Positions 3,601 to 55,647 of a DNA stretch of 64,000 nt are shown here, one piece after another (position 1 is the first letter of the stretch; every line of letters begins with the position of its first letter). Position numbers and translations under genes: made by a program. Under the pieces are notes generated by a model. It did no database searches. It saw nothing but the letters and a program-made list of their open reading frames with translations, and was not told the DNA's origin. This stretch comes from Escherichia coli (GTDB lineage Bacteria; Pseudomonadota; Gammaproteobacteria; Enterobacterales; Enterobacteriaceae): assembly GCF_050920415.1 (NCBI RefSeq), contig NZ_CP169309.1. The stretch is one strand, 5' to 3'.

Positions 3601-4085
3601 GCCCACAGCCGGGTCAGGAATGTCAGGTCGCTCTCCCCGTACTGCACGCAGAACTCCCGCGCCGGGTGCGCCTCATAGAACAGCGGCATCCACGCCGTCA
3701 CCCCGTTCTCTCTCAGAAGCTGTGCTGATATCGTCCCTATGTCCTGCTGCTGGAAGATACGGAAGTTCTGCCGTAACCCTGCCCGCCACAGCGGCGGGCT
3801 GATGCTCAGGGAATAACGCATCTGCCAGTCGTTGTTCTCACCGAGCTGCACCTCCGTCACGATACCGCTGACGTAACGCTGCGGGATATCACCCTGCCAG
3901 ACCGTCAGCACCGCGCTCTTCTCCAGAAAATCCTCCGCCGTCAGGTCAGACAGCCCGCTGGCGATATCCACATCCAGGATGAACGGCGTGCAGTGGTGCT
4001 GGTACAGACGGAAGCTCACCACCGCCGTCGCCATCTCCACGATACCGGCCACCGACAGCGTGAAACGTAATCCTTCTGAGGACAT
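630..4085 (-). CDS. vgrG: Evolved VgrG (T6SS spike, gp27/gp5-like core) with about 430 aa C-terminal extension ending in a colicin E9-like HNH DNase domain
   Basis: Six-frame ORF 630..4118 (1162 aa). N-terminus MSSEGLRFTL... is VgrG-like, so the likely start is the ATG at 4085 with a GGGG motif upstream (ORF-track alternative 4118). The middle has gp5-type repeats (VANDRRITVRNDQTLKVTNDRTVSV...). The C-terminus ...FDEFRAAFW...RQRVGGRGTFEIHHIDEIQYGGEVYDIDNLRVNTPKNHIRLHK matches the colicin E9/E7 DNase H-N-H motif by eye. Confidence 0.88.
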   Translation of the reverse strand: MSSEGLRFTLSVAGIVEMATAVVSFRLYQHHCTPFILDVDIASGLSDLTAEDFLEKSAVLTVWQGDIPQRYVSGIVTEVQLGENNDWQMRYSLSISPPLWRAGLRQNFRIFQQQDIGTISAQLLRENGVTAWMPLFYEAHPAREFCVQYGESDLTFLTRLWAEEGIFFYERCSQDGPEQKLAVCDDVAGLTGMGALAFNPNTTTGGTTEYISDFRYRAQISVASVETQDYTFKTPGWPGYYSHDGESLNGQGTQYEIFDYPGRFKDEQHGQDFARYQTEGWRNGAETASGVCNTARLWPGTRFRLTGHPSGTLNREWQVVGSTLRGEQPQALHGSHGEGTTLSNQFEVIPADRTWRHAPLPKPKVDGPQSAIVTGPKGEEIFCDEHGRVRVKFHWDRYHGMTEESSCWIRVSQAWAGPGFGNLAIPRVGQEVIVDFLNGDPDQPIVTGRTYHEDNRSPGDLPGTRTQMTIRSKTYKGSGFNELRFEDATDSEQVYIHAQKNMDTEVLNDRRTDVKHDHTETIGNDQKIRVVKGQTVEVGTRKEGGHDQSITVANDRRITVRNDQTLKVTNDRTVSVSHDDGLYVRNDRKVTVEGKQEHKTTGNHISLVEGTHSLEVKGDLAEKVSGALGIKVDGDIVLESSSRISLKVGGSFVVVHSGGVDIVGPKINLNGGGSPGTPINTLQPAVMDALADEQYDRGNAGGGNDGEPSDEDESEGGEEDKDDSDELVIPVYAKSCLKEKGCTDAGTTMEPSKHFGDMALFAQPVEDDCCGYGTHYHDDEVEQLAQSAKKTSGANSLTGEMTVASAGVAVPLAAEQSAGVLTRVWGTLGAWGGEGFLSVSKTVPALGVLVSALYPIPAGEGSDKVPGRDEQWLENELRRKAQSGETAATRARFLFQRNTAGELRTYGYHTPAGSELEGVRVALMEWNKEFSRYEFSPVSDSGPKIFWTPAKPEGSEQPIHTGTPVEPVDLPDIYVNPIPDEKTDITTPPSPMPEERNFNDWILVFPDGAELTPIYVYLKTARDEAGTVTGKGEVLAGTGRWLSQAGKSLGVPIPQQVANKLRSKSFNNFDEFRAAFWTAVGECPELLSQFNKANQTLIKRGRAPYTISRQRVGGRGTFEIHHIDEIQYGGEVYDIDNLRVNTPKNHIRLHK
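633..1004 (-). other. HNH (beta-beta-alpha-metal) colicin-type DNase toxin domain, the last ~124 aa of VgrG
   Basis: HH...N...H arrangement (EIHH, NTPKNH, RLHK) and a preceding KSLGVPIPQQVANKLRSKSFNNFDEFRAAFW segment, collinear with the colicin E9 DNase domain as remembered. About 38% GC by eye, versus about 60% for the VgrG core. Confidence 0.75.
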
Positions 4086-4260
4086 ATAAACCCCATAGCT
4101 ACCGCACTCATGGTGCAAACCATACGGGCTTATAAGAAAGGCTTAAGTGAGATATCTGCCAGATAGCAACTATTAGGAAAATATTTATATATATTTCATG
4201 AATATATATTTCGGTTGGTATAACGGTGTCTAAATATTCCTCTGAACATCTTCCTGATAC

Positions 4261-4298
4261 AAAAAAACCGCCAGCGTTTCCGCTGGCGGTTTTCTTTG
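4261..4298 (-). terminator. Rho-independent terminator downstream of ybfA (bidirectional hairpin), insulating ybfA from the vgrG promoter
   Basis: A-run, then 9-bp perfect stem ccgccagcg/cgctggcgg with tttc loop, then T-run. Confidence 0.75.
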
Positions 4299-4315
4299 AA
4301 CGTAATATTTAGCAA

Positions 4316-4522
4316 TCAGTAAAAATCACCGGTTGCCTTTTCGGCCTGATCCATCCACACCGGTTTATCGCTGGTTTTCGACCAGACGCGGTGCAGGTAG
4401 CTGTAAAAGCGGGCGCGGTCTTTCCAGAAAAGCATGAAAGGCAGCGCCAAAACGCCCGCTGCAACCGCATAAGTACGGCGTAAAAAGATAAGCCATGCAG
4501 GATATTCTCTGTAGAGTTCCAT
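4316..4522 (-). CDS. ybfA: YbfA, DUF2517 small membrane protein (68 aa)
   Basis: Translation [29 protein letters not shown]... matches K-12 YbfA from memory; position adjacent to kdp. Confidence 0.8.
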
Positions 4523-4731
4523 ACTTTTCTCCCCCTTTTGTATCTACCCGGTGAATGGCACCGGAAAAATGAATTTGTTTATCTGATGAAAATAGTACCG
4601 CCTTTTGTGTAATTTTACTACTCATCCGACCACTTATTTTTGCTTATTGATGGTTTATTTACATTCACCCCGTAATTAAGTTACATAAAAGTTAAATTAA
4701 TACTAAACATTAGTTAAATCATGGCTTTTGC

Positions 4732-4800
4732 CATTTTTATACTTTTTTTACACCCCGTCCGCAGATTTTTGCGAAATCTTTGCAGCCAGAATTCTACCCT
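4732..4800 (+). promoter_or_regulatory. kdpFABC promoter region with KdpE-binding site (catttttatactttttttacacccc)
   Basis: T-rich direct-repeat element matching the remembered KdpE operator, about 75-100 nt upstream of kdpF. Confidence 0.55.
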
Positions 4801-4834
4801 TCCGGTATCACTTTTAGGCCACTGGAGGTGCACT

Positions 4835-4924
4835 GTGAGTGCAGGCGTGATAACCGGCGTATTGCTGGTGTTTTTATTACTGGGTTATCTGGTTTATGCC
4901 CTGATCAATGCGGAGGCGTTCTGA
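4835..4924 (+). CDS. kdpF: KdpF, 29-aa K+-ATPase subunit
   Basis: GTG start after GGAGG; [29 protein letters not shown]; stop TGA overlaps the kdpA ATG (tgATGg). Confidence 0.8.
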
Positions 4925-6597
4925 TGGCTGCGCAAGGGTTCTTACTGATTGCCACGTTTTTACTGGTGTTAATGGTGCTGGCGCGCCCTTTGGGCAGTGG
5001 GCTGGCGCGGCTGATTAATGATATTCCTCTTCCTGGTACGACGGGCGTTGAGCGCGTACTCTTTCGTGTACTCGGCGTCTCTGGCCTTGAGATGAACTGG
5101 AAGCAGTATCTCTCTGCCATTCTCGGCCTGAACATGCTGGGGCTGGCGGTGCTGTTTTTTATGTTGCTCGGTCAGCACTATCTACCGCTTAACCCGCAGC
5201 AGTTACCGGGGCTGTCGTGGGATCTGGCGCTGAATACTGCCGTCAGCTTTGTCACTAATACCAACTGGCAATCTTATAGCGGTGAAACCACATTAAGCTA
5301 TTTCAGCCAGATGGTGGGCTTAACGGTACAAAACTTTCTTTCTGCCGCCAGCGGGATTGCGGTGATTTTTGCCCTCATTCGTGCATTTACCCGCCAGAGC
5401 ATGAGCACACTCGGCAATGCCTGGGTCGATCTGCTACGCATCACGTTATGGGTGTTAGCCCCGGTGGCGTTGTTGATCGCGCTGTTTTTTATTCAACAAG
5501 GTGCGTTGCAAAACTTTCTTCCCTATCAGTCGGTTACGACTGTTGAAGGGGCGCAACAGCTGTTACCAATGGGTCCGGTGGCTTCTCAGGAAGCGATCAA
5601 GATGCTCGGCACTAATGGCGGCGGTTTCTTTAATGCCAACTCATCGCATCCGTTTGAAAACCCGACCGCACTGACCAACTTCGTGCAGATGCTGGCGATC
5701 TTCTTGATCCCAACAGCGCTGTGCTTTGCCTTTGGTGAAGTGGCAGGCGATCGCCGCCAGGGGCGCATGTTGCTGTGGGCGATGTCAGTGATTTTTGTCA
5801 TCTGCGTAGGCGTGGTGATGTGGGCAGAAGTTCAGGGTAATCCTCATCTGCTGGCGCTGGGTGCGGACAGCAGCATCAATATGGAAGGTAAAGAGAGCCG
5901 TTTCGGCGTGCTGGTCAGTAGCCTGTTTGCGGTCGTGACTACGGCGGCTTCCTGTGGCGCGGTGATTGCGATGCATGATTCGTTTACCGCTCTCGGTGGC
6001 ATGGTGCCGATGTGGCTGATGCAAATTGGTGAAGTGGTATTCGGCGGTGTCGGTTCTGGTCTTTACGGCATGATGCTGTTCGTTCTGCTGGCGGTGTTTA
6101 TTGCCGGGCTGATGATTGGTCGTACACCGGAATATCTGGGTAAAAAAATCGACGTACGTGAGATGAAACTGACTGCACTGGCGATTCTGGTCACCCCGAC
6201 GCTGGTGCTGATGGGCGCGGCGCTGGCAATGATGACCGACGCCGGACGTAGCGCCATGCTCAACCCTGGCCCGCATGGTTTTAGCGAAGTGCTGTACGCC
6301 GTGTCATCCGCCGCTAACAACAACGGCAGCGCCTTTGCCGGCTTAAGCGCCAACTCTCCGTTCTGGAACTGTTTACTGGCGTTCTGCATGTTTGTCGGTC
6401 GCTTCGGGGTGATTATCCCGGTGATGGCGATTGCCGGTTCGCTGGTGAGTAAAAAGAGCCAGCCCGCCAGCTCCGGCACGCTACCAACGCACGGCCCGCT
6501 GTTTGTTGGTCTGTTGATCGGCACCGTGTTGCTGGTTGGCGCACTGACCTTTATCCCTGCCCTGGCGCTTGGTCCGGTGGCGGAATATCTCTCCTGA
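4924..6597 (+). CDS. kdpA: KdpA, K+-translocating ATPase channel subunit
   Basis: [16 protein letters not shown]...; the ORF-track 5' extension (4780) is rejected in favour of the ATG overlapping the kdpF stop. Confidence 0.95.
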
Positions 6598-13289: not shown

Positions 13290-15488
13290 ATGTCAGAATT
13301 AAAAATTGCCGTTAGTCGTTCTTGCCCGGATTGTTTTTCCACTCATCGTGCATGCGTGAATATTGACGAAAGTAATTATATTGACGTTGCCGCCATTATT
13401 TTGTCGGTCAATGATGTTGAACGTGGAAAACTCGATGAAATAGACGCTACTGGCTATGGCATTCCTATTTTTATTGCAACGGAAAATGAAGAACGTGTAC
13501 CAGCAGAATATCTGCCACGTATTACTGGTGTCTTCGAGCATTGCGAATCACGGAAAGAATTTTACGGACGTCAGTTAGAAACCGCCGCCAGCCATTATGA
13601 AACGCAGCTGCGCCCGCCCTTCTTCCGCGCACTGGTCGATTATGTCAATCAGGGCAATAGCGCTTTTGACTGCCCGGGTCATCAGGGGGGTGAGTTTTTC
13701 CGTCGCCATCCGGCAGGCAATCAGTTCGTGGAATATTTTGGCGAAATGCTCTTCCGCTCCGACTTGTGTAATGCCGACGTAGCAATGGGCGATCTACTGA
13801 TTCATGAAGGTGCGCCATGCATTGCACAGCAACATGCAGCTAAAGTGTTTAATGCCGATAAAACGTACTTTGTTTTAAACGGCACCTCCTCTTCCAACAA
13901 AGTGGTTTTAAACGCCCTGCTAACACCGGGTGATCTGGTGCTGTTTGACCGCAATAACCATAAGTCTAACCACCACGGGGCCTTGCTACAGGCTGGTGCA
14001 ACACCGGTTTATCTGGAAACAGCACGTAACCCGTATGGTTTTATCGGTGGTATTGATGCGCACTGCTTCGAAGAAAGTTATCTGCGTGAACTGATTAAAG
14101 AAGTTGCACCGCAACGGGCAAAAGAGGCGCGTCCGTTCCGCCTCGCTGTGATTCAGTTAGGCACCTACGACGGTACTATTTATAACGCCCGCCAGGTGGT
14201 GGATAAAATCGGTCATCTGTGTGACTACATCCTGTTTGACTCAGCATGGGTCGGCTATGAACAGTTTATTCCGATGATGGCGGACTGTTCGCCGCTGCTA
14301 CTGGAGCTTAATGAGAACGATCCGGGTATTCTGGTTACGCAATCTGTACATAAGCAGCAGGCTGGTTTTTCCCAGACTTCACAAATTCATAAAAAAGACA
14401 GCCATATCAAAGGGCAACAGCGTTATGTCCCGCACAAACGCATGAACAACGCCTTTATGATGCACGCCTCCACCAGCCCGTTCTATCCGCTGTTTGCCGC
14501 ACTGGATATTAACGCCAAAATGCATGAAGGTGTCAGCGGTCGTAATATGTGGATGGATTGTGTGGTTAACGGTATTAATGCCCGCAAATTGATCCTCGAT
14601 AACTGTCAGCACATTCGTCCGTTCGTTCCTGAACTGGTGGATGGTAAACCCTGGCAATCGTATGAAACAGCGCAAATTGCGGTTGATCTGCGCTTCTTTA
14701 AATTTGTACCCGGTGAGCACTGGCATTCTTTTGAAGGTTACGCAGAGAATCAATACTTTGTCGATCCGTGCAAACTGTTGCTGACAACTCCTGGCATTGA
14801 TGCACGTAACGGCGAATATGAAGCATTCGGTGTACCCGCGACGATTCTTGCTAACTTCCTGCGCGAAAATGGCGTAGTGCCGGAAAAATGCGATCTTAAC
14901 TCCATCCTCTTCCTGCTGACTCCGGCAGAAGATATGGCCAAACTGCAGCAACTTGTTGCCCTGCTGGTACGCTTCGAAAAACTACTGGAAGCTGATGCGC
15001 CTCTGGCGGAAGTATTGCCTTCCATCTACAAACAGCATGAAGAGCGCTACGCCGGTTATACCCTGCGTCAGTTGTGCCAGGAAATGCATGATTTGTATGC
15101 CCGTCACAACGTGAAACAACTGCAAAAAGAGATGTTCCGTAAGGAACACTTCCCACGCGTCAGCATGAATCCACAGGAAGCCAACTATGCCTACTTACGC
15201 GGTGAAGTGGAACTGGTTCGTCTGCCGGATGCAGAAGGCCGTATCGCAGCCGAAGGTGCGCTTCCTTATCCTCCGGGTGTGCTGTGTGTTGTTCCGGGTG
15301 AAATCTGGGGTGGTGCTGTTCTGCGTTACTTCAGCGCTCTGGAAGAAGGGATCAACCTGCTGCCAGGTTTTGCACCGGAGCTGCAGGGTGTCTATATCGA
15401 AGAACATGATGGTCGTAAGCAAGTTTGGTGCTATGTCATCAAGCCTCGTGATGCGCAAAGCACCCTGTTGAAAGGGGAAAAATTATGA
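13290..15488 (+). CDS. speF: Inducible ornithine decarboxylase
   Basis: MSELKIAVS...; second in-frame ATG chosen (9-nt spacing from AAAGAG); PLP-dependent decarboxylase signature. Confidence 0.95.
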   Translation: MSELKIAVSRSCPDCFSTHRACVNIDESNYIDVAAIILSVNDVERGKLDEIDATGYGIPIFIATENEERVPAEYLPRITGVFEHCESRKEFYGRQLETAASHYETQLRPPFFRALVDYVNQGNSAFDCPGHQGGEFFRRHPAGNQFVEYFGEMLFRSDLCNADVAMGDLLIHEGAPCIAQQHAAKVFNADKTYFVLNGTSSSNKVVLNALLTPGDLVLFDRNNHKSNHHGALLQAGATPVYLETARNPYGFIGGIDAHCFEESYLRELIKEVAPQRAKEARPFRLAVIQLGTYDGTIYNARQVVDKIGHLCDYILFDSAWVGYEQFIPMMADCSPLLLELNENDPGILVTQSVHKQQAGFSQTSQIHKKDSHIKGQQRYVPHKRMNNAFMMHASTSPFYPLFAALDINAKMHEGVSGRNMWMDCVVNGINARKLILDNCQHIRPFVPELVDGKPWQSYETAQIAVDLRFFKFVPGEHWHSFEGYAENQYFVDPCKLLLTTPGIDARNGEYEAFGVPATILANFLRENGVVPEKCDLNSILFLLTPAEDMAKLQQLVALLVRFEKLLEADAPLAEVLPSIYKQHEERYAGYTLRQLCQEMHDLYARHNVKQLQKEMFRKEHFPRVSMNPQEANYAYLRGEVELVRLPDAEGRIAAEGALPYPPGVLCVVPGEIWGGAVLRYFSALEEGINLLPGFAPELQGVYIEEHDGRKQVWCYVIKPRDAQSTLLKGEKL

Positions 15489-16804
15489 GTCAGGCTAAAT
15501 CGAACAAAATGGGCGTCGTTCAGTTAACCATACTGACGATGGTCAACATGATGGGCTCCGGCATCATCATGCTGCCGACAAAGCTTGCCGAAGTTGGGAC
15601 AATCTCAATAATCTCCTGGTTGGTGACAGCCGTAGGCTCAATGGCGCTGGCATGGGCATTCGCAAAATGCGGTATGTTCAGCCGTAAATCAGGCGGTATG
15701 GGCGGTTATGCCGAGTATGCTTTCGGTAAATCCGGTAACTTTATGGCGAACTATACCTACGGCGTCTCGCTGCTGATTGCTAACGTGGCGATTGCTATTT
15801 CGGCAGTTGGTTACGGCACCGAACTGCTCGGCGCGAGTTTGTCACCAGTGCAGATTGGTCTGGCAACCATCGGAGTGCTGTGGATTTGTACCGTGGCTAA
15901 CTTTGGTGGTGCGCGCATTACCGGGCAAATCAGTAGCATTACCGTGTGGGGGGTCATTATTCCGGTGGTAGGCCTGTGCGTTATCGGCTGGTTCTGGTTT
16001 AGCCCGACACTTTACGTTGATTCCTGGAATCCGCATCATGCACCGTTCTTCAGTGCGGTAGGTTCTTCCATCGCCATGACGCTGTGGGCTTTTCTTGGTC
16101 TGGAGTCTGCGTGTGCGAATACTGATGTAGTGGAAAACCCGGAACGTAATGTGCCAATCGCGGTACTCGGCGGTACGTTAGGTGCGGCGGTGATTTATAT
16201 CGTCTCCACCAACGTGATTGCCGGGATTGTGCCCAATATGGAGCTGGCAAATTCAACGGCACCATTTGGTCTGGCCTTCGCGCAAATGTTCACACCGGAA
16301 GTGGGTAAAGTCATTATGGCGCTGATGGTGATGTCCTGCTGCGGTTCGCTACTTGGCTGGCAGTTCACCATTGCCCAGGTGTTTAAATCTTCATCTGATG
16401 AAGGCTACTTCCCTAAAATTTTCTCCCGTGTAACCAAAGTGGATGCACCGGTTCAGGGGATGTTGACCATTGTGATTATTCAGAGTGGATTGGCACTGAT
16501 GACCATTAGCCCGTCACTGAACAGCCAGTTCAACGTGCTGGTTAACCTGGCCGTGGTGACCAATATCATCCCATATATTCTGTCGATGGCGGCATTAGTC
16601 ATTATTCAGAAGGTCGCCAATGTGCCACCATCAAAAGCGAAAGTAGCAAACTTTGTTGCCTTTGTTGGTGCGATGTACAGTTTCTATGCGCTGTACTCAT
16701 CCGGGGAAGAAGCCATGCTGTACGGTTCCATCGTGACCTTCCTTGGTTGGACACTGTATGGTCTGGTATCACCACGCTTTGAACTGAAAAACAAACACGG
16801 TTAA
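15485..16804 (+). CDS. potE: Putrescine:ornithine antiporter
   Basis: 439 aa; MSQAKSNKMGVVQLTILTMVNMMGSGIIMLP; start overlaps the speF stop. Confidence 0.95.
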   Translation: MSQAKSNKMGVVQLTILTMVNMMGSGIIMLPTKLAEVGTISIISWLVTAVGSMALAWAFAKCGMFSRKSGGMGGYAEYAFGKSGNFMANYTYGVSLLIANVAIAISAVGYGTELLGASLSPVQIGLATIGVLWICTVANFGGARITGQISSITVWGVIIPVVGLCVIGWFWFSPTLYVDSWNPHHAPFFSAVGSSIAMTLWAFLGLESACANTDVVENPERNVPIAVLGGTLGAAVIYIVSTNVIAGIVPNMELANSTAPFGLAFAQMFTPEVGKVIMALMVMSCCGSLLGWQFTIAQVFKSSSDEGYFPKIFSRVTKVDAPVQGMLTIVIIQSGLALMTISPSLNSQFNVLVNLAVVTNIIPYILSMAALVIIQKVANVPPSKAKVANFVAFVGAMYSFYALYSSGEEAMLYGSIVTFLGWTLYGLVSPRFELKNKHG

Positions 16805-24125: not shown

Positions 24126-24287
24126 GCCGGATGCGGCGTGAACGCCTTATCCGGCCTACAAAAGCACGCAAATTCAATATATGGCAGAGATCATGTAGGC
24201 CTGATAAGCGTAGCGCATCAGGCAATTTAGCGTTTGAAACTGTTTCTATGTTTCTTGCCGGATGCGGCGTAAACGCCTCACCCGGCC
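24126..24287. repeat. REP/BIME cluster (three REP units) between chiP and glnS
   Basis: gccggatgcggcgtgaacgccttatccggcctac, gtaggcctgataagcgtagcgcatcaggc, gccggatgcggcgtaaacgcctcacccggcc. Confidence 0.8.
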
Positions 24288-47824: not shown

Positions 47825-49495
47825 ATGGATAATGCAGAACTCGCCATTGGTATCGATCTCGGCACTACCAATAGTTTAATTGCCGTCTGGAAAGACGGTG
47901 CCGCGCAATTAATTCCAAATAAGTTCGGTGAATATTTAACACCATCCATAATTAGCATGGATGAAAATAATCATATTTTAGTCGGAAAACCCGCTGTATC
48001 ACGGCGCACTTCGCATCCGGATAAAACGGCAGCGTTATTTAAACGTGCAATGGGCAGTAATACCAACTGGCGGTTAGGCAGCGACACATTTAACGCACCA
48101 GAACTGTCCTCTTTAGTATTACGCTCATTAAAAGAAGATGCCGAAGAATTTCTGCAACGTCCGATTAAAGATGTGGTGATCTCCGTTCCGGCTTATTTCA
48201 GCGATGAACAACGCAAGCATACCCGTTTAGCAGCGGAGTTAGCCGGGTTAAATGCGGTACGCTTAATTAATGAACCCACAGCAGCTGCGATGGCATATGG
48301 CCTGCATACGCAACAAAATACCCGCTCGCTGGTTTTTGATCTCGGTGGTGGCACGTTTGACGTCACGGTGCTCGAATACGCCACGCCGGTGATTGAAGTT
48401 CACGCCTCCGCGGGAGATAACTTTCTTGGCGGCGAAGATTTTACTCATATGCTGGTGGATGAAGTTTTAAAACGCTCCGCAGTGGCTAAAAACATGCTCA
48501 ACGAAAGTGAGCTGGCAGCCCTGTACACCAGCGTGGAAGCGGCAAAATGCAGCAATCAATTACCGCTGCAAATTAGCTGGCAGTATCAGGAAGAAACGCG
48601 TGAGTGCGAATTTTACGAGAACGAACTGGAAGATTTGTGGTTGCCGCTGCTCAATCGCTTGCGAGTGCCGATTGAACAGGCGTTGCGCGATGCACGTCTG
48701 AAGCCAAGTCAAATCGACAGTCTGGTGCTGGTTGGCGGCGCATCACAAATGCCGCTGGTGCAGCGAATCGCCGTGCGTCTGTTTGGCAAATTACCGTATC
48801 AAAGTTACGACCCGAGTACTATTGTCGCGCTGGGAGCAGCAATCCAGGCCGCCTGCCGCTTACGCAGCGAAGACATTGAAGAAGTGATCCTCACCGATAT
48901 TTGCCCCTACTCCTTAGGTGTTGAAGTTAACCGCCAGGGCGTTTCCGGCATTTTCTCACCGATTATTGAACGAAACACCACTGTACCGGTGTCGCGTGTA
49001 GAAACTTACTCGACCATGCACCCGGAACAGGATTCAATTACGGTTAACGTCTATCAGGGAGAAAACCACAAAGTTAAAAATAACATTCTGGTAGAATCCT
49101 TCGATGTGCCGTTGAAGAAAACCGGGGCTTATCAGTCGATTGATATTCGCTTTAGTTATGATATCAACGGGTTGCTTGAAGTTGACGTGCTTCTGGAAGA
49201 CGGCAGCGTTAAGTCCAGAGTCATTAACCACAGTCCTGTAACATTGAGCGCACAGCAGATTGAAGAGAGTCGGACGCGGTTATCCGCATTGAAAATTTAT
49301 CCGCGCGATATGCTCATCAACCGCACCTTTAAGGCCAAACTGGAAGAGTTGTGGGCGCGGGCGCTGGGTGACGAGCGAGAAGAGATCGGCCGGGTGATCA
49401 CCGATTTTGATGCGGCGTTGCAGTCAAACGATATGGCCCGCGTCGATGAAGTTCGGCGACGGGCGAGCGATTATTTAGCCATTGAGATCCCATAA
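47825..49495 (+). CDS. hscC: Hsp70-family chaperone HscC
   Basis: IGIDLGTTNS, DLGGGTFD Hsp70 signatures; 556 aa (shorter than DnaK). Confidence 0.9.
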   Translation: MDNAELAIGIDLGTTNSLIAVWKDGAAQLIPNKFGEYLTPSIISMDENNHILVGKPAVSRRTSHPDKTAALFKRAMGSNTNWRLGSDTFNAPELSSLVLRSLKEDAEEFLQRPIKDVVISVPAYFSDEQRKHTRLAAELAGLNAVRLINEPTAAAMAYGLHTQQNTRSLVFDLGGGTFDVTVLEYATPVIEVHASAGDNFLGGEDFTHMLVDEVLKRSAVAKNMLNESELAALYTSVEAAKCSNQLPLQISWQYQEETRECEFYENELEDLWLPLLNRLRVPIEQALRDARLKPSQIDSLVLVGGASQMPLVQRIAVRLFGKLPYQSYDPSTIVALGAAIQAACRLRSEDIEEVILTDICPYSLGVEVNRQGVSGIFSPIIERNTTVPVSRVETYSTMHPEQDSITVNVYQGENHKVKNNILVESFDVPLKKTGAYQSIDIRFSYDINGLLEVDVLLEDGSVKSRVINHSPVTLSAQQIEESRTRLSALKIYPRDMLINRTFKAKLEELWARALGDEREEIGRVITDFDAALQSNDMARVDEVRRRASDYLAIEIP

Positions 49496-49503
49496 ACACG
49501 GCT

Positions 49504-49532
49504 GCCGGATGCGGCGTAAACGCTGCATCCGG
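49504..49532. repeat. REP-like hairpin / bidirectional terminator between hscC and djlC
   Basis: gccggatgc ... gcatccggc perfect 9-bp stem. Confidence 0.6.
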
Positions 49533-49554
49533 CATCGGCGCAAAAAACACATCC

Positions 49555-51006
49555 TCAGCTAAACAACATCGCGATTTTTCCGAGAGCATAGCCTATCACC
49601 AGCACCGTTAAGCTGATTTTGATAATGCTGGTAATGCTCTGTGGTTTTTCATCCTCATCATTTTTTTCTTCGTGGTTTTCAGGTGTTGGCTCATCGACAT
49701 CTTCATCCTCCGGCTCGAGTTTCACTTTCGTCAACAGCATCCGCGTGATAATGGCCTCTAATGGATGAGCATCTCCACCTTCCAGCCTTGTATTAAGACG
49801 GGCCAGCATCTCTTGTTTCGGGAACGCTTCCAGCACAACCTGTTCCGCTACCCGATACAAATCCAGTAACGGTGAATCTTGTTCTGTCTCGCTACCGACT
49901 CTCGATTTCCACCATGCCCATGCTTTGCGTTTGAAGAATAACGACTCAATAAACGATTGACCTAACGGCGATAATTTTCCGCTATGTAAAATTTCCGCCC
50001 ATAACAGCCTCGTCCGGGCGCTCTCACCAGGAACATATTTTAGCGGCTTACCTTGCGCATCAACCATACTTCGCGCTTCGATAACCATCACTAACAGCGC
50101 GAAGTAATCCGGGCAATGTTGCGCACTCCACTGCAGTAATAAATTATCGGCTTGTGTAGATGGATAACTTTCCCAGTAACCACAGAGATCGGCAAGCATG
50201 CTTTCACCCTCGCCGCAGTACAACTGTTGCGCACACTGGTAATATCGGGCATCTTCACTTTCTGGTTCTTCCGTTTGCCACTGTTGCGCTACAGAAATGA
50301 GTTCCGCCATACCTGTTTGCACCGAGCTATACCAGCGCAACAATTTGCGATGCAACTTCGCATCATCAGGAATGAACCACGGACCTTCCATTGCCATAAA
50401 CGCAGTGACATAGTCAGGATGGTAACGGCAGCAGCGTTCCAGCGCGAAGTAATACTCAACAGTCTGGTTCTGCAACGCGACGGGATATTCCAGAAGGCTA
50501 AGGAAATCGAAACAATCACCAGCCTGAATGGCCTCAAGAAAAGCCTCCCTTTCTTCCTCATCCATTCCTTCGCTGTCATTAAACGAATGCCAGTTCAAAC
50601 GCTCTGCCAGCAAAGAAGCACAATTTAATGAAAGATATCGCGCTTCTATAGCGACTGCACACAGCGGCCAGCGTAATTGATCGACATCCTCCATGTTCCA
50701 GGTATTTAATTGCTGAATAAATTTCTGCCAGGCGGAGGGCTGAAAACGATCACTTTCAGAATCCAGTAATGCCCTGAATGCACGTAGTATTTCATGTTCA
50801 GCGGCGGCATCTTTTTCTTCATCATCTGCTTCCTCGACAGGATTTACCGCCAGTCGCAGCGCCTCTTCATAGGCCTGGCGTAATGCTTTAAACCCCTGCG
50901 GATCGGTTTCGGGATGACACAACGGTAAGCGAGCAAGATAAGCCTGGCGGATAATTTCTATTTGCGTCGTGCTTTCAATTTCGAGGATTTGCCAACATGT
51001 TTTCAT
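49555..51006 (-). CDS. djlC: J-domain co-chaperone DjlC (C-terminal membrane anchor)
   Basis: N-terminal J-like domain ...[33 protein letters not shown]; C-terminal hydrophobic tail; 4-nt overlap with the ybeU stop. Confidence 0.85.
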
Positions 51007-51710
51007 AGGTCGCTTACATCCTTAAGCGTTACCGGGCATTCAGGCTGGACAGTTAATGGCTGCCAGGGAAGCGTGGCATAGAAACGGTCGCTTCCCGCTG
51101 CCAGCTCTTCGAACATCCGACTCCCGGCGCTATCGTATTTGTACAGGGTTAGCGCCTCGCGTAGCGAAGCGTTGTCTTCGCACTGAGAAGATTGCCAGTA
51201 GAGACGCCCTAACGAATAGGCGGAAAAATAGTGCATCCAGCTGTGATAGTAATGGTGTGCTCGTATATAGACACGCGATTGCAGCCATAAACTCTCGTCT
51301 TCCGTCAGCCACTTGTTGAGCACACCAACCCGTGATAAAAAACTCATCCGCACATAATCCCAGGCTTTGATTCCCCCTTCCCCACAACACATAGCGGTTT
51401 GGGTAACGAATTGGGTATAAATCAACCCTCTCTCCGAGCCGCCAGCAATTAATGCTTTCCACTCTTCAGGGGAAGAGCGATGCCATGTCAGATATAAGCC
51501 AGCTAAATCATTGGCATGACCATCATCGGTCATCTGATAAATAGTCTGAATTAAATCATCACGATTATTTATTCCCCAGGATGATGAGAGATCGAATTCT
51601 TTTATCCCGGTATACATTTTTGGCGAGTCATGCGCTGGCTTGCAACCCTGATTAAGTATTTCCATGGGTGCAGAAAGCGCAAAAAGAAGATATTGTTCTT
51701 CCTTATTCAT
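51003..51710 (-). CDS. ybeU: YbeU (DUF1266 family)
   Basis: 235 aa; paralog of YbeR (shared [22 protein letters not shown] motifs). Confidence 0.85.
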
Positions 51711-51810
51711 TTGTTAATAATCCCTTAAGTGCATTAACTGACTACTTTTTTATTATCGATGAGTATAAACTTGACGTTTTCAAAATAAAAGAAAATAGAA
51801 GTATTCAAGC

Positions 51811-52365
51811 ATGAATAAAAAATTAATGTATATATTCGCAATATTTATAGTTGCGGCAATTACCTGTATTAGCCAACCCAAGAAAACGACCCTGCGCGAT
51901 AAAGCTATGGCGAATTATGTCTTTGATTATTTAAGCTCACCGGGCAGTCTTCCGTTTACCACGGCAGCAACAGAGCTTTCCGCCATTCATGGTCACTCAA
52001 CGTCGCAATATAGACTTGGCGAATTTTATCTTCATGGTAGCGATGGTAAGCCTCTGGATTATACAAAGGCGAGATACTGGTATGAGCAATCAGCGGAACA
52101 GGAAAATCCACGCGCGCAAAGTCAACTGGGATGGATCTACCTGAAAGGTTTGGGAGTCAATCCCGATACCCGTAAAGCAATTCTCTGGTATAAGGAAGCA
52201 GCTGAACAAGGGCATGTTCATGCACAATACACGTTGGGTTTGATCTACAGAAACGGCACGGGCATTAGCACCAACAATTATGAAGCTCGCAAATGGTTAG
52301 AACTGGCGGCAGAGCAACATTATAAAAATGCGGAAAGATTACTTGCAGAGCTTCCCGCACATTAA
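51811..52365 (+). CDS. ybeT: YbeT, Sel1-repeat protein with N-terminal hydrophobic segment
   Basis: 184 aa; repeats of A.YNLG..Y..G.GV.QD..KA..WY.KAAEQG type. Confidence 0.85.
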
Positions 52366-52374
52366 CGTCGACTG

Positions 52375-53802
52375 TCACCCGAACAGATGGAGTATTTTCC
52401 CTATCAAACCGGCAAAGATAAAAATGTAGAAAATAATTTTGATGACGCCCAGGCAGCCCGGCCCACCATCGTCAACGAGCATCGACTGCGGTTGCGGCTC
52501 CGGTTCGACGGTTTGCTTCTCGGTAAAATTTGCCGCCTGAATTAATAATCGACGAATCATTAATGCTTCCAGTGGACAACGATCTTCTGCATCAAGGCGG
52601 CTGACGATCGGCATTAATGATTCTTCTGTCGGTTGGCTGGCCTGAACTAATTGTTTAGCAACTAAATATAATGGCCATAAGGGATGTTCTGTATCACGCG
52701 TGAGTGAGATCCGCGGCTTACGTCCTTTGTGCAAAACCATCTCGACCAGAGAACGCCCCAGCGCAGAGAGTTTTTCATCACTGAGTATTTCGTATAAATG
52801 AAAACGCGTACGAGCGCTGTCACCAGGGACATAAAGTAGCGGTTTTCCCTGATCGTTAACCAGATCACGCGCTTCAATCATCATCACCACTAACGGGTAA
52901 TAATCGACCCGATGCTGACGGCACCATTGCAACATTAAAGCATCCGCCTGGGTGGAGGGATACTCGCGCCAGAAGTCACAAAGTTCTGCCAGCAGGCTTT
53001 CGCCTTCTCCACAATAGACGCGTTGCGCGTATTCATAATAACGCGCATCTTCATTATCAGGTTCAGCTACCCGCCACGACCGGGCGTAATCCAGAAGTTC
53101 GGGGATATCCAGACGGCTTGTGCTATACCAGCGGAGTAAATTTCTGTGCAAATTTGCATCATCGGGGATAATCACTGCGCGATGTTGCGCTAAATACAAT
53201 GTCAGCCATTCTGGATGCGATGACCAAATCCGCGCGAACATTTGGTAAAAATCAATGGTGTCATTTTGTACGGCAACGGGCAGATGCAGAATGGTCTGGA
53301 AGTTAAAAACATTCCCCTTCGCAATGGCATATAAAAAGGATTCCAGTTCTTCTTCGTCTATTTCCCCGACGTTTTCCTCCTGCAACCACCGCAATCTTTC
53401 TGCTAATAACACCACGCACTCGAAGGATAAATGGGCAGTGTTCATGGCTATTGTGCACAGCGACCAGCGTAATTCATCAATATCTTCCATCGAGCAATAA
53501 TTTAATTGCTGAATGAATCGCTGCCAGGCAGAGGGCAGAAAACGTTCGCTATCAGAGGCGAGTAACGCACGAAAGGCGAGCAGAATTTCATGTTCTGCAA
53601 CTTCATGTTCTTCTGGTTGCCAAACAGATTTAGCAGGCGACTGCGCAATCCGTAGCGCGTCCTCATACGCCTGACGAAGTTGTTTAAAACCCTGCGGATC
53701 GGTTTCTGGATGAAAGGACGGTAACAGCGCCAGATAAGCGCGGCGGATAATATCGACGTCAGTCGTTTCCTCTATTTCGAGAATATTCCAGCAATTTTTC
53801 AT
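52375..53802 (-). CDS. djlB: J-domain co-chaperone DjlB (C-terminal membrane anchor)
   Basis: Paralog of DjlC: [39 protein letters not shown]...; C-terminal hydrophobic tail; 4-nt overlap with the ybeR stop. Confidence 0.85.
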
Positions 53803-54506
53803 AGGTCGCTCATATCATTAAGCGTTTCCGGACATGTGGGGTAGTCAGCCAGTGGTTGCCAGGGTAAGGTCGCGTAATATGCATCGTCACTGGCAATTAA
53901 TTGATAAAACATATCATTGCCGGAATCGTCGTATTCTTTACGTGCCAATGTTTCCCGCAATAACGGTAAATTGTCATCATCAGGAGACTGCCAGTATTGC
54001 CGGCCAAAGGTATAACCGGCAAAATACTGCCGCCAGCTGGTATAATAACGTAGCACCCGCAGGTGAAGACGCGATTGGATCCACAGGCTTTCTTCTTCGC
54101 TGAGCCAGTTATTAAGTACGCCCATCCGGCTTAAAAAACCCATACGGACATAATCCCAGGCTTTTATACCGCCTTCGCCACAACATTCGGCAGTGCTGGC
54201 GACAAACTGCGCATAAGCCTGACCTTGCTCATTTAGTTCAGCAAGATAGTCACGCCATTCACATGGAGAATAACGAAACCAGCGGTGATAAAAACCAGCC
54301 AACCGCGCAGCATGACCGTTATCCATCATTCGATGAATTGTCCGCAACAGGTCTTCACGGTCATCAATTCCCCATGAGGAAGAAAGGTCAAAAAAGCGTG
54401 TACCTAAATACATTTTGGGGGATGAATGCGAAGGTAAACAGCATTCATTGCGTATTTCCATCGGAGTGGAAAGTGCAAACAATATTTTTTGCGACTCCAT
54501 GTCCAT
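53799..54506 (-). CDS. ybeR: YbeR (DUF1266 family)
   Basis: 235 aa; paralog of YbeU. Confidence 0.85.
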
Positions 54507-54663
54507 ATAATTTATCCTTAAACATTTATTTAATGAATGTAAACTACATTGCGAGACTCAGTTATTTATACTTTTCTGACGCAACATAATACGCATAAAA
54601 TAAGGCTTACGCAAAAATGGAATACATAAAAATATAATATGTTTTATCTACAACCATAAGGAA

Positions 54664-55647
54664 ATGATAATGATTTTTACGTCAAGTTGCTGCGATAATT
54701 TATCAATAGATGAGATTATCGAACGTGCTGAAAAAGGCGATTGCGAGGCTCAATATATTGTTGGGTTTTATTATAATCGCGATAGCGCAATTGACTCTCC
54801 GGACGACGAAAAGGCCTTTTACTGGCTGAAGCTGGCCGCTGAGCAAGGTCATTGTGAAGCACAATATTCCTTAGGGCAAAAGTATACCGAGGATAAAAGC
54901 CGTCATAAAGATAATGAGCAAGCCATCTTTTGGCTGAAAAAAGCAGCCCTACAAGGACATACTTTCGCTTCCAACGCCCTTGGCTGGATACTGGATCGTG
55001 GAGAAGACCCCAACTATAAAGAAGCGGTTGTCTGGTATCAGATAGCCGCGGAGAGCGGAATGTCTTATGCGCAAAATAATCTTGGGTGGATGTACAGAAA
55101 TGGCAACGGAGTCACACAAGATTATGCGCTGGCATTTTTCTGGTACAAACAAGCTGCATTGCAAGGCCATAGTTACGCACAAGACAATCTGGCCGATCTT
55201 TATGAAGACGGTAAAGGTGTTGCTCAAAACAAGACACTCGCCGCATTCTGGTATTTGAAAAGCGCACAGCAGGGTAATCGGCATGCCCAGTTTCAAATTG
55301 CATGGGATTATAACGCTGGCGAAGGGGTGGACCAGGACTATAAGCAAGCGATGTACTGGTATCTGAAGGCTGCCGCTCAGGAAAGCGTCGGCGCTTACGT
55401 TAACATCGGCTATATGTATAAACACGGTCAAAGCGTTGAGAAGGATTATCAGGCCGCCTTTGAATGGTTTACGAAAGCCGCTGAATGCGATAATGCCACT
55501 GCCTGGTATAACCTTGCCATTATGTATCATTACGGAGAAGGAAGACCTGTCGATCTCCGACAGGCTCTCGATCTGTATCGTAAAGCTCAGTCATCCGGTA
55601 CCAGGGATGTCAGTCAAAAAATCCGTGAGATTGAAGATTTACTGTAG
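54664..55647 (+). CDS. ybeQ: YbeQ, Sel1-repeat protein (about 8 repeats)
   Basis: 327 aa; tandem Sel1/TPR-like repeats, no signal peptide. Confidence 0.85.
   Translation: MIMIFTSSCCDNLSIDEIIERAEKGDCEAQYIVGFYYNRDSAIDSPDDEKAFYWLKLAAEQGHCEAQYSLGQKYTEDKSRHKDNEQAIFWLKKAALQGHTFASNALGWILDRGEDPNYKEAVVWYQIAAESGMSYAQNNLGWMYRNGNGVTQDYALAFFWYKQAALQGHSYAQDNLADLYEDGKGVAQNKTLAAFWYLKSAQQGNRHAQFQIAWDYNAGEGVDQDYKQAMYWYLKAAAQESVGAYVNIGYMYKHGQSVEKDYQAAFEWFTKAAECDNATAWYNLAIMYHYGEGRPVDLRQALDLYRKAQSSGTRDVSQKIREIEDLL

Follow-up and report, generated by a model that had tools for sequence, protein, structure and literature searches.

A DUF1266–J-protein cassette, duplicated in tandem beside hscC in Escherichia coli, forms with hscC a conserved three-gene core

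The HscC locus of Escherichia coli was analysed in a stretch of 64,000 nucleotides (nt; hereafter the window) from contig NZ_CP169309.1 of the RefSeq assembly GCF_050920415.1, in which the genes hscC, djlC, ybeU, ybeT, djlB, ybeR and ybeQ occupy positions 47825-55647. The block is the published HscC system of E. coli and is therefore already known in kind. What is added here is a corrected duplication unit, a conserved core of three genes, and the accessory, fast-evolving and poorly expressed nature of the locus. The block is bordered by rihA on one side and by ybeL/leuS on the other, and a 9.5-kb stretch around it is 100% identical to E. coli strain MFDS1022581, where the RefSeq gene names are the same. 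These names, together with the open reading frame (ORF) list, confirmed the seven genes at the positions given in an earlier note made by a model from the letters of this DNA. The features are listed below (aa, amino acids; REP, repetitive extragenic palindromic).

hscC, 47825-49495, plus strand: specialised Hsp70 of 556 aa (ORF list; RefSeq name in the 100%-identical genome)
REP element, 49499..49537, no strand given: single element, a hairpin in the convergent spacer between hscC and djlC
djlC, 49555-51006, minus strand: J-protein of 483 aa with an N-terminal HPE J domain, an all-helical central domain and a tail anchor at about residues 457-483
ybeU, 51003-51710, minus strand: 235-aa DUF1266 protein lacking any hydrophobic segment; its stop and the djlC start share ATGA
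ybeU-ybeT spacer, 51711..51810, no strand given: AT-rich and divergent, presumably with the promoters for both genes
ybeT, 51811-52365, plus strand: 184-aa Sel1-repeat protein, with a hydrophobic segment near the N-terminus (residues 2-23); PF08238 is on record
djlB, 52375-53802, minus strand: 475-aa paralogue of djlC; J domain of the HPE type, tail anchor at the C terminus (about residues 446-475)
ybeR, 53799-54506, minus strand: DUF1266 protein of 235 aa, paralogue of ybeU; its stop codon overlaps the djlB start (ATGA)
ybeR-ybeQ spacer, 54507..54663, no strand given: AT-rich and divergent
ybeQ, 54664-55647, plus strand: 327-aa Sel1-repeat protein, 8 repeats, lacking a signal sequence
tandem DNA repeat, copy 1, 50326..51080, no strand given: 5' half of djlC and 3' end of ybeU
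tandem DNA repeat, copy 2, 53122..53876, no strand given: 5' half of djlB and 3' end of ybeR

The arrows of the earlier note were drawn oddly, but its text correctly had ybeR upstream of djlB, with ybeQ running divergently from ybeR. Both junctions between a DUF1266 gene and a J-protein gene read ...GACCTATGAAAA, with the ATG of the djl gene and the TGA of the ybe gene sharing 4 nt, so the overlap reported earlier is present in the sequence at both places. The genes ybeT and djlB are convergent, and their stop codons are separated by 9 nt (52366-52374) with no terminator-like hairpin in between; transcription arriving from either gene would continue into the opposite one in antisense orientation. 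Seven of the Sel1 repeats of YbeQ were detected by Pfam at E <= 0.001 and the eighth at 0.0023. When HscC was compared with NCBIfam, the top models were DnaK and HscA, with scores far under their cut-offs.

Between hscC and djlC, the spacer of 59 nt forms a hairpin of 17 pairs, with a folding energy of -31.4 kcal/mol and a z of -5.25. A 20-mer of this hairpin is also found at 24126 and 24257 in the window, against a chance expectation of 0.01 matches, so that the hairpin is an ordinary REP element: it is an imperfect palindrome, contains the GCCGGATG core and is repeated in intergenic DNA. The REP-like hairpin proposed earlier for this convergent junction is thus borne out by both its fold and its recurrence. 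No consensus sigma-70 site was found in the ybeU-ybeT spacer, a promoter and terminator consensus scan of the region gave no more sites than shuffled sequence, and Rfam detected no structured RNAs in the region.

Several properties of the system have been described previously. The partnership of HscC with DjlC, the inference that DjlB is likewise a partner, and the tail anchoring of the J-proteins are attributed to Kluck 2002 and Peschke 2018 in a review (PMC8215388), according to which DjlC is inserted in the inner membrane (Peschke 2018). The same review states that DjlC stimulates HscC, which DnaJ, CbpA and HscB do not, stimulation of its ATPase having been reported for DjlC only and being assumed for DjlB, that loss of hscC, or of djlB plus djlC, causes sensitivity to Cd2+, that increased UV resistance is attributed to HscC, and that HscC has few clients (PMC8215388). 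The role of DjlB and DjlC as tail-anchored J-partners of HscC, which the earlier note gave as established, therefore agrees with the literature as well as with the C-terminal hydrophobic segments of the two proteins. Their HPE motif has also been noted (PMC13254874), and a 2019 comparative paper mentioned a cassette of these genes in Salmonella LT2 and E. coli K-12 (PMC6935094). The reviews of 2021 and 2026 present the system as an Hsp70 with J-proteins only (PMC8215388, PMC13254874), and no discussion of DUF1266 as a partner in the HscC system was found in the searchable literature.

A scan of one genome per species with an alignment of the YbeU-like clade yielded 24 loci, to which others were added by looking up more distant stand-alone DUF1266 proteins and, for the plasmids of Erwinia persicina, by tblastn; the homologues at these loci were mapped with phmmer and tblastn. 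The order DUF1266, J-protein, HscC was observed in 23 of the 23 loci outside Escherichia with enough downstream DNA, namely in Salmonella, Klebsiella spallanzanii, three Pectobacterium, Erwinia, Gilliamella, 12 Pseudomonas, Marinobacter, two unassigned genome records and one metagenome contig. Four further contigs, including that of Bowmanella, end within the J gene. The DUF1266 and J genes overlap in nearly all loci outside E. coli by 1-14 nt, usually by 4 nt, and the order of the core holds down to about 22-30% DUF1266 identity. The HscC homologues at these loci are 555-577 aa long, with 555-563 aa given for those behind the cassette at the complete loci, and hscC is convergent with the cassette everywhere except in Marinobacter. 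The earlier note had made its proposal depend on DUF1266 genes occurring with J-domain and Hsp70 genes outside Escherichia, and such co-occurrence was found from Salmonella to Marinobacter. The conserved core thus consists of three genes, coding for a cytosolic DUF1266 protein, a J-protein joined to it by the start/stop overlap, and HscC. The same three genes were listed as species-specific neighbours in Dickeya fangzhongdai (PMC6329079).

The J-proteins outside the enterics are larger (560-950 aa), and their two or three C-terminal transmembrane segments are similar to DUF805. The G+C content of the core follows that of the host genome in most species, over a range of 36 to 69%, suggesting that these are resident genes there rather than fresh imports. 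Copies of the core with frameshifts were found in Pectobacterium sp. PL152 and on Erwinia plasmids. The latter are non-mobilizable Erwinia persicina plasmids of 130-165 kb; in one of them, p_Cp2 (NZ_CP082142.1:110241-126912), the J-protein is annotated in four pieces and HscC is readable only across several frames.

The earlier note described the locus as a tandemly duplicated module of three genes, coding for a Sel1-repeat protein, a DUF1266 protein and a J-protein. Alignment of the three gene pairs, which it had proposed as a check, supports the duplication for two of them: DjlC and DjlB share 50% identity over the full length (E 3e-160), as do YbeU and YbeR with 58% (E 9e-105), and the DNA repeat formed by 50326-51080 and 53122-53876 has 74-77% identity, in register and with a period of 2796 nt. 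The Sel1 pair does not follow. YbeT and YbeQ match repeat-to-repeat only, with 32-40% identity, they differ in length (184 against 327 aa) and have unlike N-termini, and the hydrophobic segment of YbeT, by which it is probably exported or membrane-anchored, is missing in YbeQ, implying different cellular locations. No DNA repeats were found over the Sel1 genes or the divergent spacers, and the ybeU-ybeT and ybeR-ybeQ spacers show no real similarity to each other. The order of genes in Salmonella is ybeL, a ybeQ-like gene, DUF1266, djlB-like, DUF1266, djlC-like, hscC, a 412-aa gene and rihA, ybeT being absent. The duplicated unit is therefore the two-gene DUF1266–J cassette and not a set of three genes; Escherichia and Salmonella carry this cassette twice in tandem with one common hscC. 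A ybeQ-like Sel1 gene stands beside the cassette in Escherichia and Salmonella only, with no Sel1 gene within 10 kb of the cassette at the surveyed loci elsewhere, and ybeQ and ybeT are lineage-specific neighbours outside the conserved core.

As for the age of the duplication, DjlC pairs clearly with the djlC-like protein of Salmonella (58-59% identity) and YbeR with the first of the two Salmonella DUF1266 proteins (65%). DjlB is no nearer its positional counterpart (48%) than the djlC-like protein (51%). A single duplication of the cassette before the split of E. coli and Salmonella is likely, more from synteny than from the sequence distances.

The cassettes diverge far faster than the flanking genes between E. 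coli and Salmonella. Protein identity is 95% for GltL, 93% for YbeL and 92% for RihA, it falls to 83% for HscC, and within the rest of the block it amounts to 65% for YbeR, 62% for YbeU, 56% for DjlC, 49% for YbeQ and 48% for DjlB. Between two E. coli strains the ratio of nonsynonymous to synonymous substitution rates (dN/dS) amounts to 0.06-0.12 within the locus, compared with 0.01-0.03 in its flanks, which indicates purifying selection on all genes of the locus and gives no sign of gene-wide positive selection. The genes are functional but loosely constrained. In a comparison with one other E. coli strain, dS was 0.38-0.42 for ybeT (51811-52365) and ybeR (53799-54506) and 0.13-0.20 for djlB lying between them and for the other genes of the block, suggesting mosaic recombination inside the locus.

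The distribution of the block within the species was determined in 5426 complete E. coli genomes with a query coverage of 80% or more. The hscC query was matched in 4375 genomes, djlC-ybeU in 4268, djlB-ybeR in 3705 and the whole block in 3693. About 1017 genomes (19%) have no hscC match at all, and the strain EcN_Sk, which is Nissle-derived, shows the empty site, with rihA followed directly by ybeL. In about 12% of the complete genomes hscC is kept and the second cassette, djlB-ybeR, is absent; one such form retains remnants of djlB and ybeQ, and another is recombinant between djlC and ybeR, its djlC being frameshifted and its ybeQ interrupted by a stop codon. The Salmonella block lies at the same rihA/ybeL site, so it is old there and loss is the likelier direction for the empty sites in E. 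coli. The rihA/ybeL gap of EcN_Sk has a REP-like hairpin of its own that matches neither junction in the window, for which reason the direction of the event is unreadable from the scar and loss is argued from the Salmonella synteny. In Salmonella, ybeS and ybeV were reported as pseudogenes in Paratyphi C and as absent in Typhi and Paratyphi A (PMC2640428).

The G+C content of the E. coli block is 46.8% against 51.6% for the flanks (about 4.9 points lower), and no integrase or tRNA features were found in this region of the window. The description of the locus as native rather than acquired thus holds as regards its shared site with Salmonella and needs qualification, since the block is accessory, missing from about 19% of E. 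coli genomes, and low in G+C. Its expression appears to be low: HscC, DjlB and DjlC were under the detection limit of proteomics (PMC8215388), and a DUF1266 gene of strain 042 showed a 308-fold increase at 25 °C when hns was mutated (PMC7582179). Its annotation and locus tag lead us to infer that the gene in question is either ybeU or ybeR.

In the J domain of DjlC and DjlB the usual HPD is replaced with HPE, and H31-P32-E33 is invariant across 18 homologues. The match of DjlC to the DnaJ profile is weak (E 0.035), J domains from PDB entries align to its residues 5-55, and PF27158 (DjlB_C_2nd) is on record for it. According to hydropathy, DjlC and DjlB each have one C-terminal hydrophobic segment (457-483 and 446-475, respectively), and every J homologue has C-terminal transmembrane segments. 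YbeU is a DUF1266 protein (PF06889) matching 174 of the 175 model positions (Pfam, E 2.6e-45); its AlphaFold2 model is compact and all-alpha, with a pLDDT (predicted local confidence) of 93.7 and a pTM (predicted template-modelling score) of 0.91. No relative among solved proteins, CbpM included, was found for DUF1266 by sequence or fold. In an alignment of 34 diverse members R121, R127, W158 and G168 are invariant and H65, D118 and E139 nearly so. The whole family is large, with 1429 representative clusters matching the profile at E <= 0.001, and its more distant domains are fused to TPR, Cu_amine_oxidN1, LRR, SLH or peptidase M54 domains. The tie of DUF1266 to HscC is limited to the stand-alone YbeU/YbeR clade.

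Taken together, these data lead us to propose that the J-protein's central domain has the DUF1266 protein as its stoichiometric partner, that the pair chooses or gates the target of HscC at the inner membrane, and that the duplication provides two specificities; we put the probability of this reading at about 55%. Translational coupling would make each DUF1266 protein in step with its J-protein, and the former would then bind the helical central domain of the latter. At the inner membrane the complex may select, present or gate access to a target, after which the HPE J domain would trigger ATP hydrolysis by HscC, which would clamp and remodel that target. The two paralogous cassettes would thus give a single HscC two specificities. 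A role for DUF1266 in nucleotide exchange is unlikely, because HscC is concluded to need no exchange factor (PMC8215388). When YbeU was joined to DjlC(1-440) in one chain through a (GGGGS)6 linker and modelled with 18 paired sequences, the pTM was 0.77 and the pLDDT 83, low confidence being confined to the linker, two internal loops and the C-terminal end. This is a weak hint of a defined arrangement of the two proteins in the model, the pTM being above what would be expected for unplaced domains but uncalibrated.

Several points weigh against this proposal. The fused-chain model gives no predicted aligned error and no interface, it has no negative control, and the linker itself favours packing. 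The identities of DUF1266 and J-proteins co-vary over the pairs with r = 0.96, for which shared phylogeny alone could account. No fusion of DUF1266 with a J-protein occurs among 36 fused DUF1266 proteins and 120 DjlB/C homologues, and neither of the two distant fused DUF1266 proteins that were looked up adjoins Hsp70 or J genes, which argues that the domain is not intrinsically a chaperone part. The conserved H65, D118, R121, R127 and E139 would also suit an enzyme or a ligand-binding site. Finally, the survey was seeded from DUF1266, so that the linkage is shown for DUF1266 genes and not for every HscC-type Hsp70.

The gene linkage and the coupling would be the same if DUF1266 were instead a dedicated client, handed by the J-protein to HscC, which would switch its conformation or activity as in HscB-IscU-HscA. 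The invariant polar R121 and R127 and the near-invariant H65, D118 and E139, which look like an active or binding site, fit such a role, as does the small number of clients reported for HscC (PMC8215388). Translational coupling, however, suits a stable subunit better than a transient client, and DUF1266 keeps pace with the J-protein in its divergence (E. coli and Salmonella share 62-65% identity here, compared with 83% for HscC), so that we regard this alternative as doubtful. Still less probable is a DUF1266 protein that inhibits or gates its own J-protein specifically, keeping the J domain blocked up to the arrival of a signal, in the manner of CbpM and CbpA. The cbpA-cbpM pair is a precedent for a co-transcribed small partner specific to one J-protein (PMC8215388), and each of the paralogous J-proteins here retains its own DUF1266 gene; on the other hand, the order is reversed, with DUF1266 first whereas cbpM follows cbpA, and DUF1266 has no relation in sequence or fold to CbpM or any other solved protein. 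The functional and duplicated unit of the earlier note, in which the Sel1 protein would be a working partner of DUF1266 and the J-protein, is very improbable: the divergent ybeQ/ybeR arrangement is indeed kept in Escherichia and Salmonella, and some DUF1266 domains elsewhere are fused to TPR repeats, the fold of which is related to Sel1, yet in Klebsiella, Pectobacterium, Gilliamella, Pseudomonas and Marinobacter no Sel1 gene comes within 10 kb of the cassette, ybeT is missing from Salmonella, YbeT and YbeQ differ in length and in the N-terminal hydrophobic segment, and both Sel1 genes lie outside the DNA repeat.

A conflict or anti-phage system, in which a fast-evolving DUF1266–J pair would sense, at the membrane, a protein that is foreign or damaged and HscC would respond, could explain why the locus is patchily present and repeatedly lost (in E. 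coli genomes and in Salmonella, PMC2640428), why decayed copies occur on the Erwinia plasmids and in Pectobacterium sp. PL152, why the cassettes diverge much faster than their flanks and have been duplicated, and why a DUF1266 gene is strongly repressed by H-NS in strain 042 (PMC7582179). Against this, PADLOC-DB 2.0 gave no meaningful match for any of the proteins, the Pseudomonas versions included: HscC, DjlB/C and DUF1266 had none, and the Sel1 repeats matched the PtuA model weakly (E about 1e-4), with no stretch passing alone. The flanking genes are housekeeping genes that differ between genera, in most species the composition is that of the host genome, a dN/dS of 0.06-0.12 gives no sign of positive selection across whole genes, a recognisable effector domain is absent, and phage records contain just two short unannotated fragments. 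The defence function raised by the earlier note therefore has no positive evidence, and such a system seems quite improbable. In its broadest form the idea would make the core a widespread and unrecognised three-component machine, with DUF1266 and the J-protein as a membrane-tethered sensor of foreign or damaged proteins (from phage, a toxin or a metal-damaged envelope) and HscC as the executor. This is speculative and improbable; if true, the core would be a conflict or stress-surveillance system built on chaperones and not an aid to folding.

The proposal of a DUF1266 partner for the J-protein bears on the cellular job of HscC, a question since 2002, for which the reviews put forward just the Cd2+ and UV phenotypes along with guesses on clients in the membrane. 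The DUF1266 gene that overlaps the J gene at the surveyed loci is a concrete third component and a testable handle on this job, and a genomic context is now assigned to one clade of the large DUF1266 family. Low or silent expression, loss in many lineages and quick evolution give a reason why phenotypes have been hard to find, and may guide the choice of strains and conditions.

The nearest known system is HscC-DjlC/DjlB of E. coli itself, with the same genes, HPE J domains, tail-anchored J-proteins and a short Hsp70 having its own J partners; the published accounts consulted are silent on the DUF1266 genes, the conserved order of the three genes and the accessory distribution. HscA-HscB-IscU is similar in combining a dedicated Hsp70, its own J-protein and a specific partner protein in one locus. 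It differs in that HscB is soluble and carries HPD, IscU is established as a client, has a defined binding motif and bears no sequence relation to DUF1266, there is no membrane anchor, and the pathway is essential housekeeping rather than accessory. In CbpA-CbpM a J-protein is co-transcribed with a small protein acting only on that J-protein, but CbpA is soluble and works with DnaK, cbpM lies downstream of cbpA, and CbpM is unrelated to DUF1266. The Pam16-containing system resembles the proposed pair in that a membrane-anchored J-protein is stably paired with a partner controlling recruitment of Hsp70 to a membrane site; Pam16 is a degenerate J-like domain, in contrast to the different, all-alpha fold of DUF1266, and evidence for a translocase is absent at the HscC locus. 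DjlA is also a membrane-anchored bacterial J-protein, although its anchor is N-terminal, its motif is HPD and its Hsp70 is DnaK. J-proteins that contain TPR repeats, for example DNAJC3/P58IPK, are grouped with DjlA in this comparison.

Some minor observations concern single records. A ybeU fragment with 96% identity to the E. coli protein is encoded at the end of NZ_WTWY01000015.1, a contig labelled Paenibacillus sp. USDA918EY; the likeliest cause is contamination of the Paenibacillus assembly by E. coli, or a chimeric contig. Several E. coli "plasmid" records in PLSDB, 0.28-4.9 Mb in length, carry this chromosomal locus and look like mislabelled chromosomes or fragments. The Salmonella ORF of 412 aa between hscC and rihA (positions 15082-16320 of surveyed locus L033) has no match in Pfam, NCBIfam or PADLOC and no E. 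coli counterpart at that place. Between ybeL and ybeQ, Escherichia sp. MOD1-EC7003 (positions 3648-5986 of surveyed locus L009) has a third, more divergent J gene of the DjlB/C type, with HPE and a C-terminal hydrophobic tail; it has an in-frame TAG after codon 93 and no DUF1266 gene beside it, and is followed by an ORF of 321 aa with a signal-like N-terminus. The two other copies of the REP 20-mer in the window (24126-24145 and 24257-24276) lie 131 nt apart in another intergenic region and are probably a REP pair resembling a bacterial interspersed mosaic element (BIME-like).

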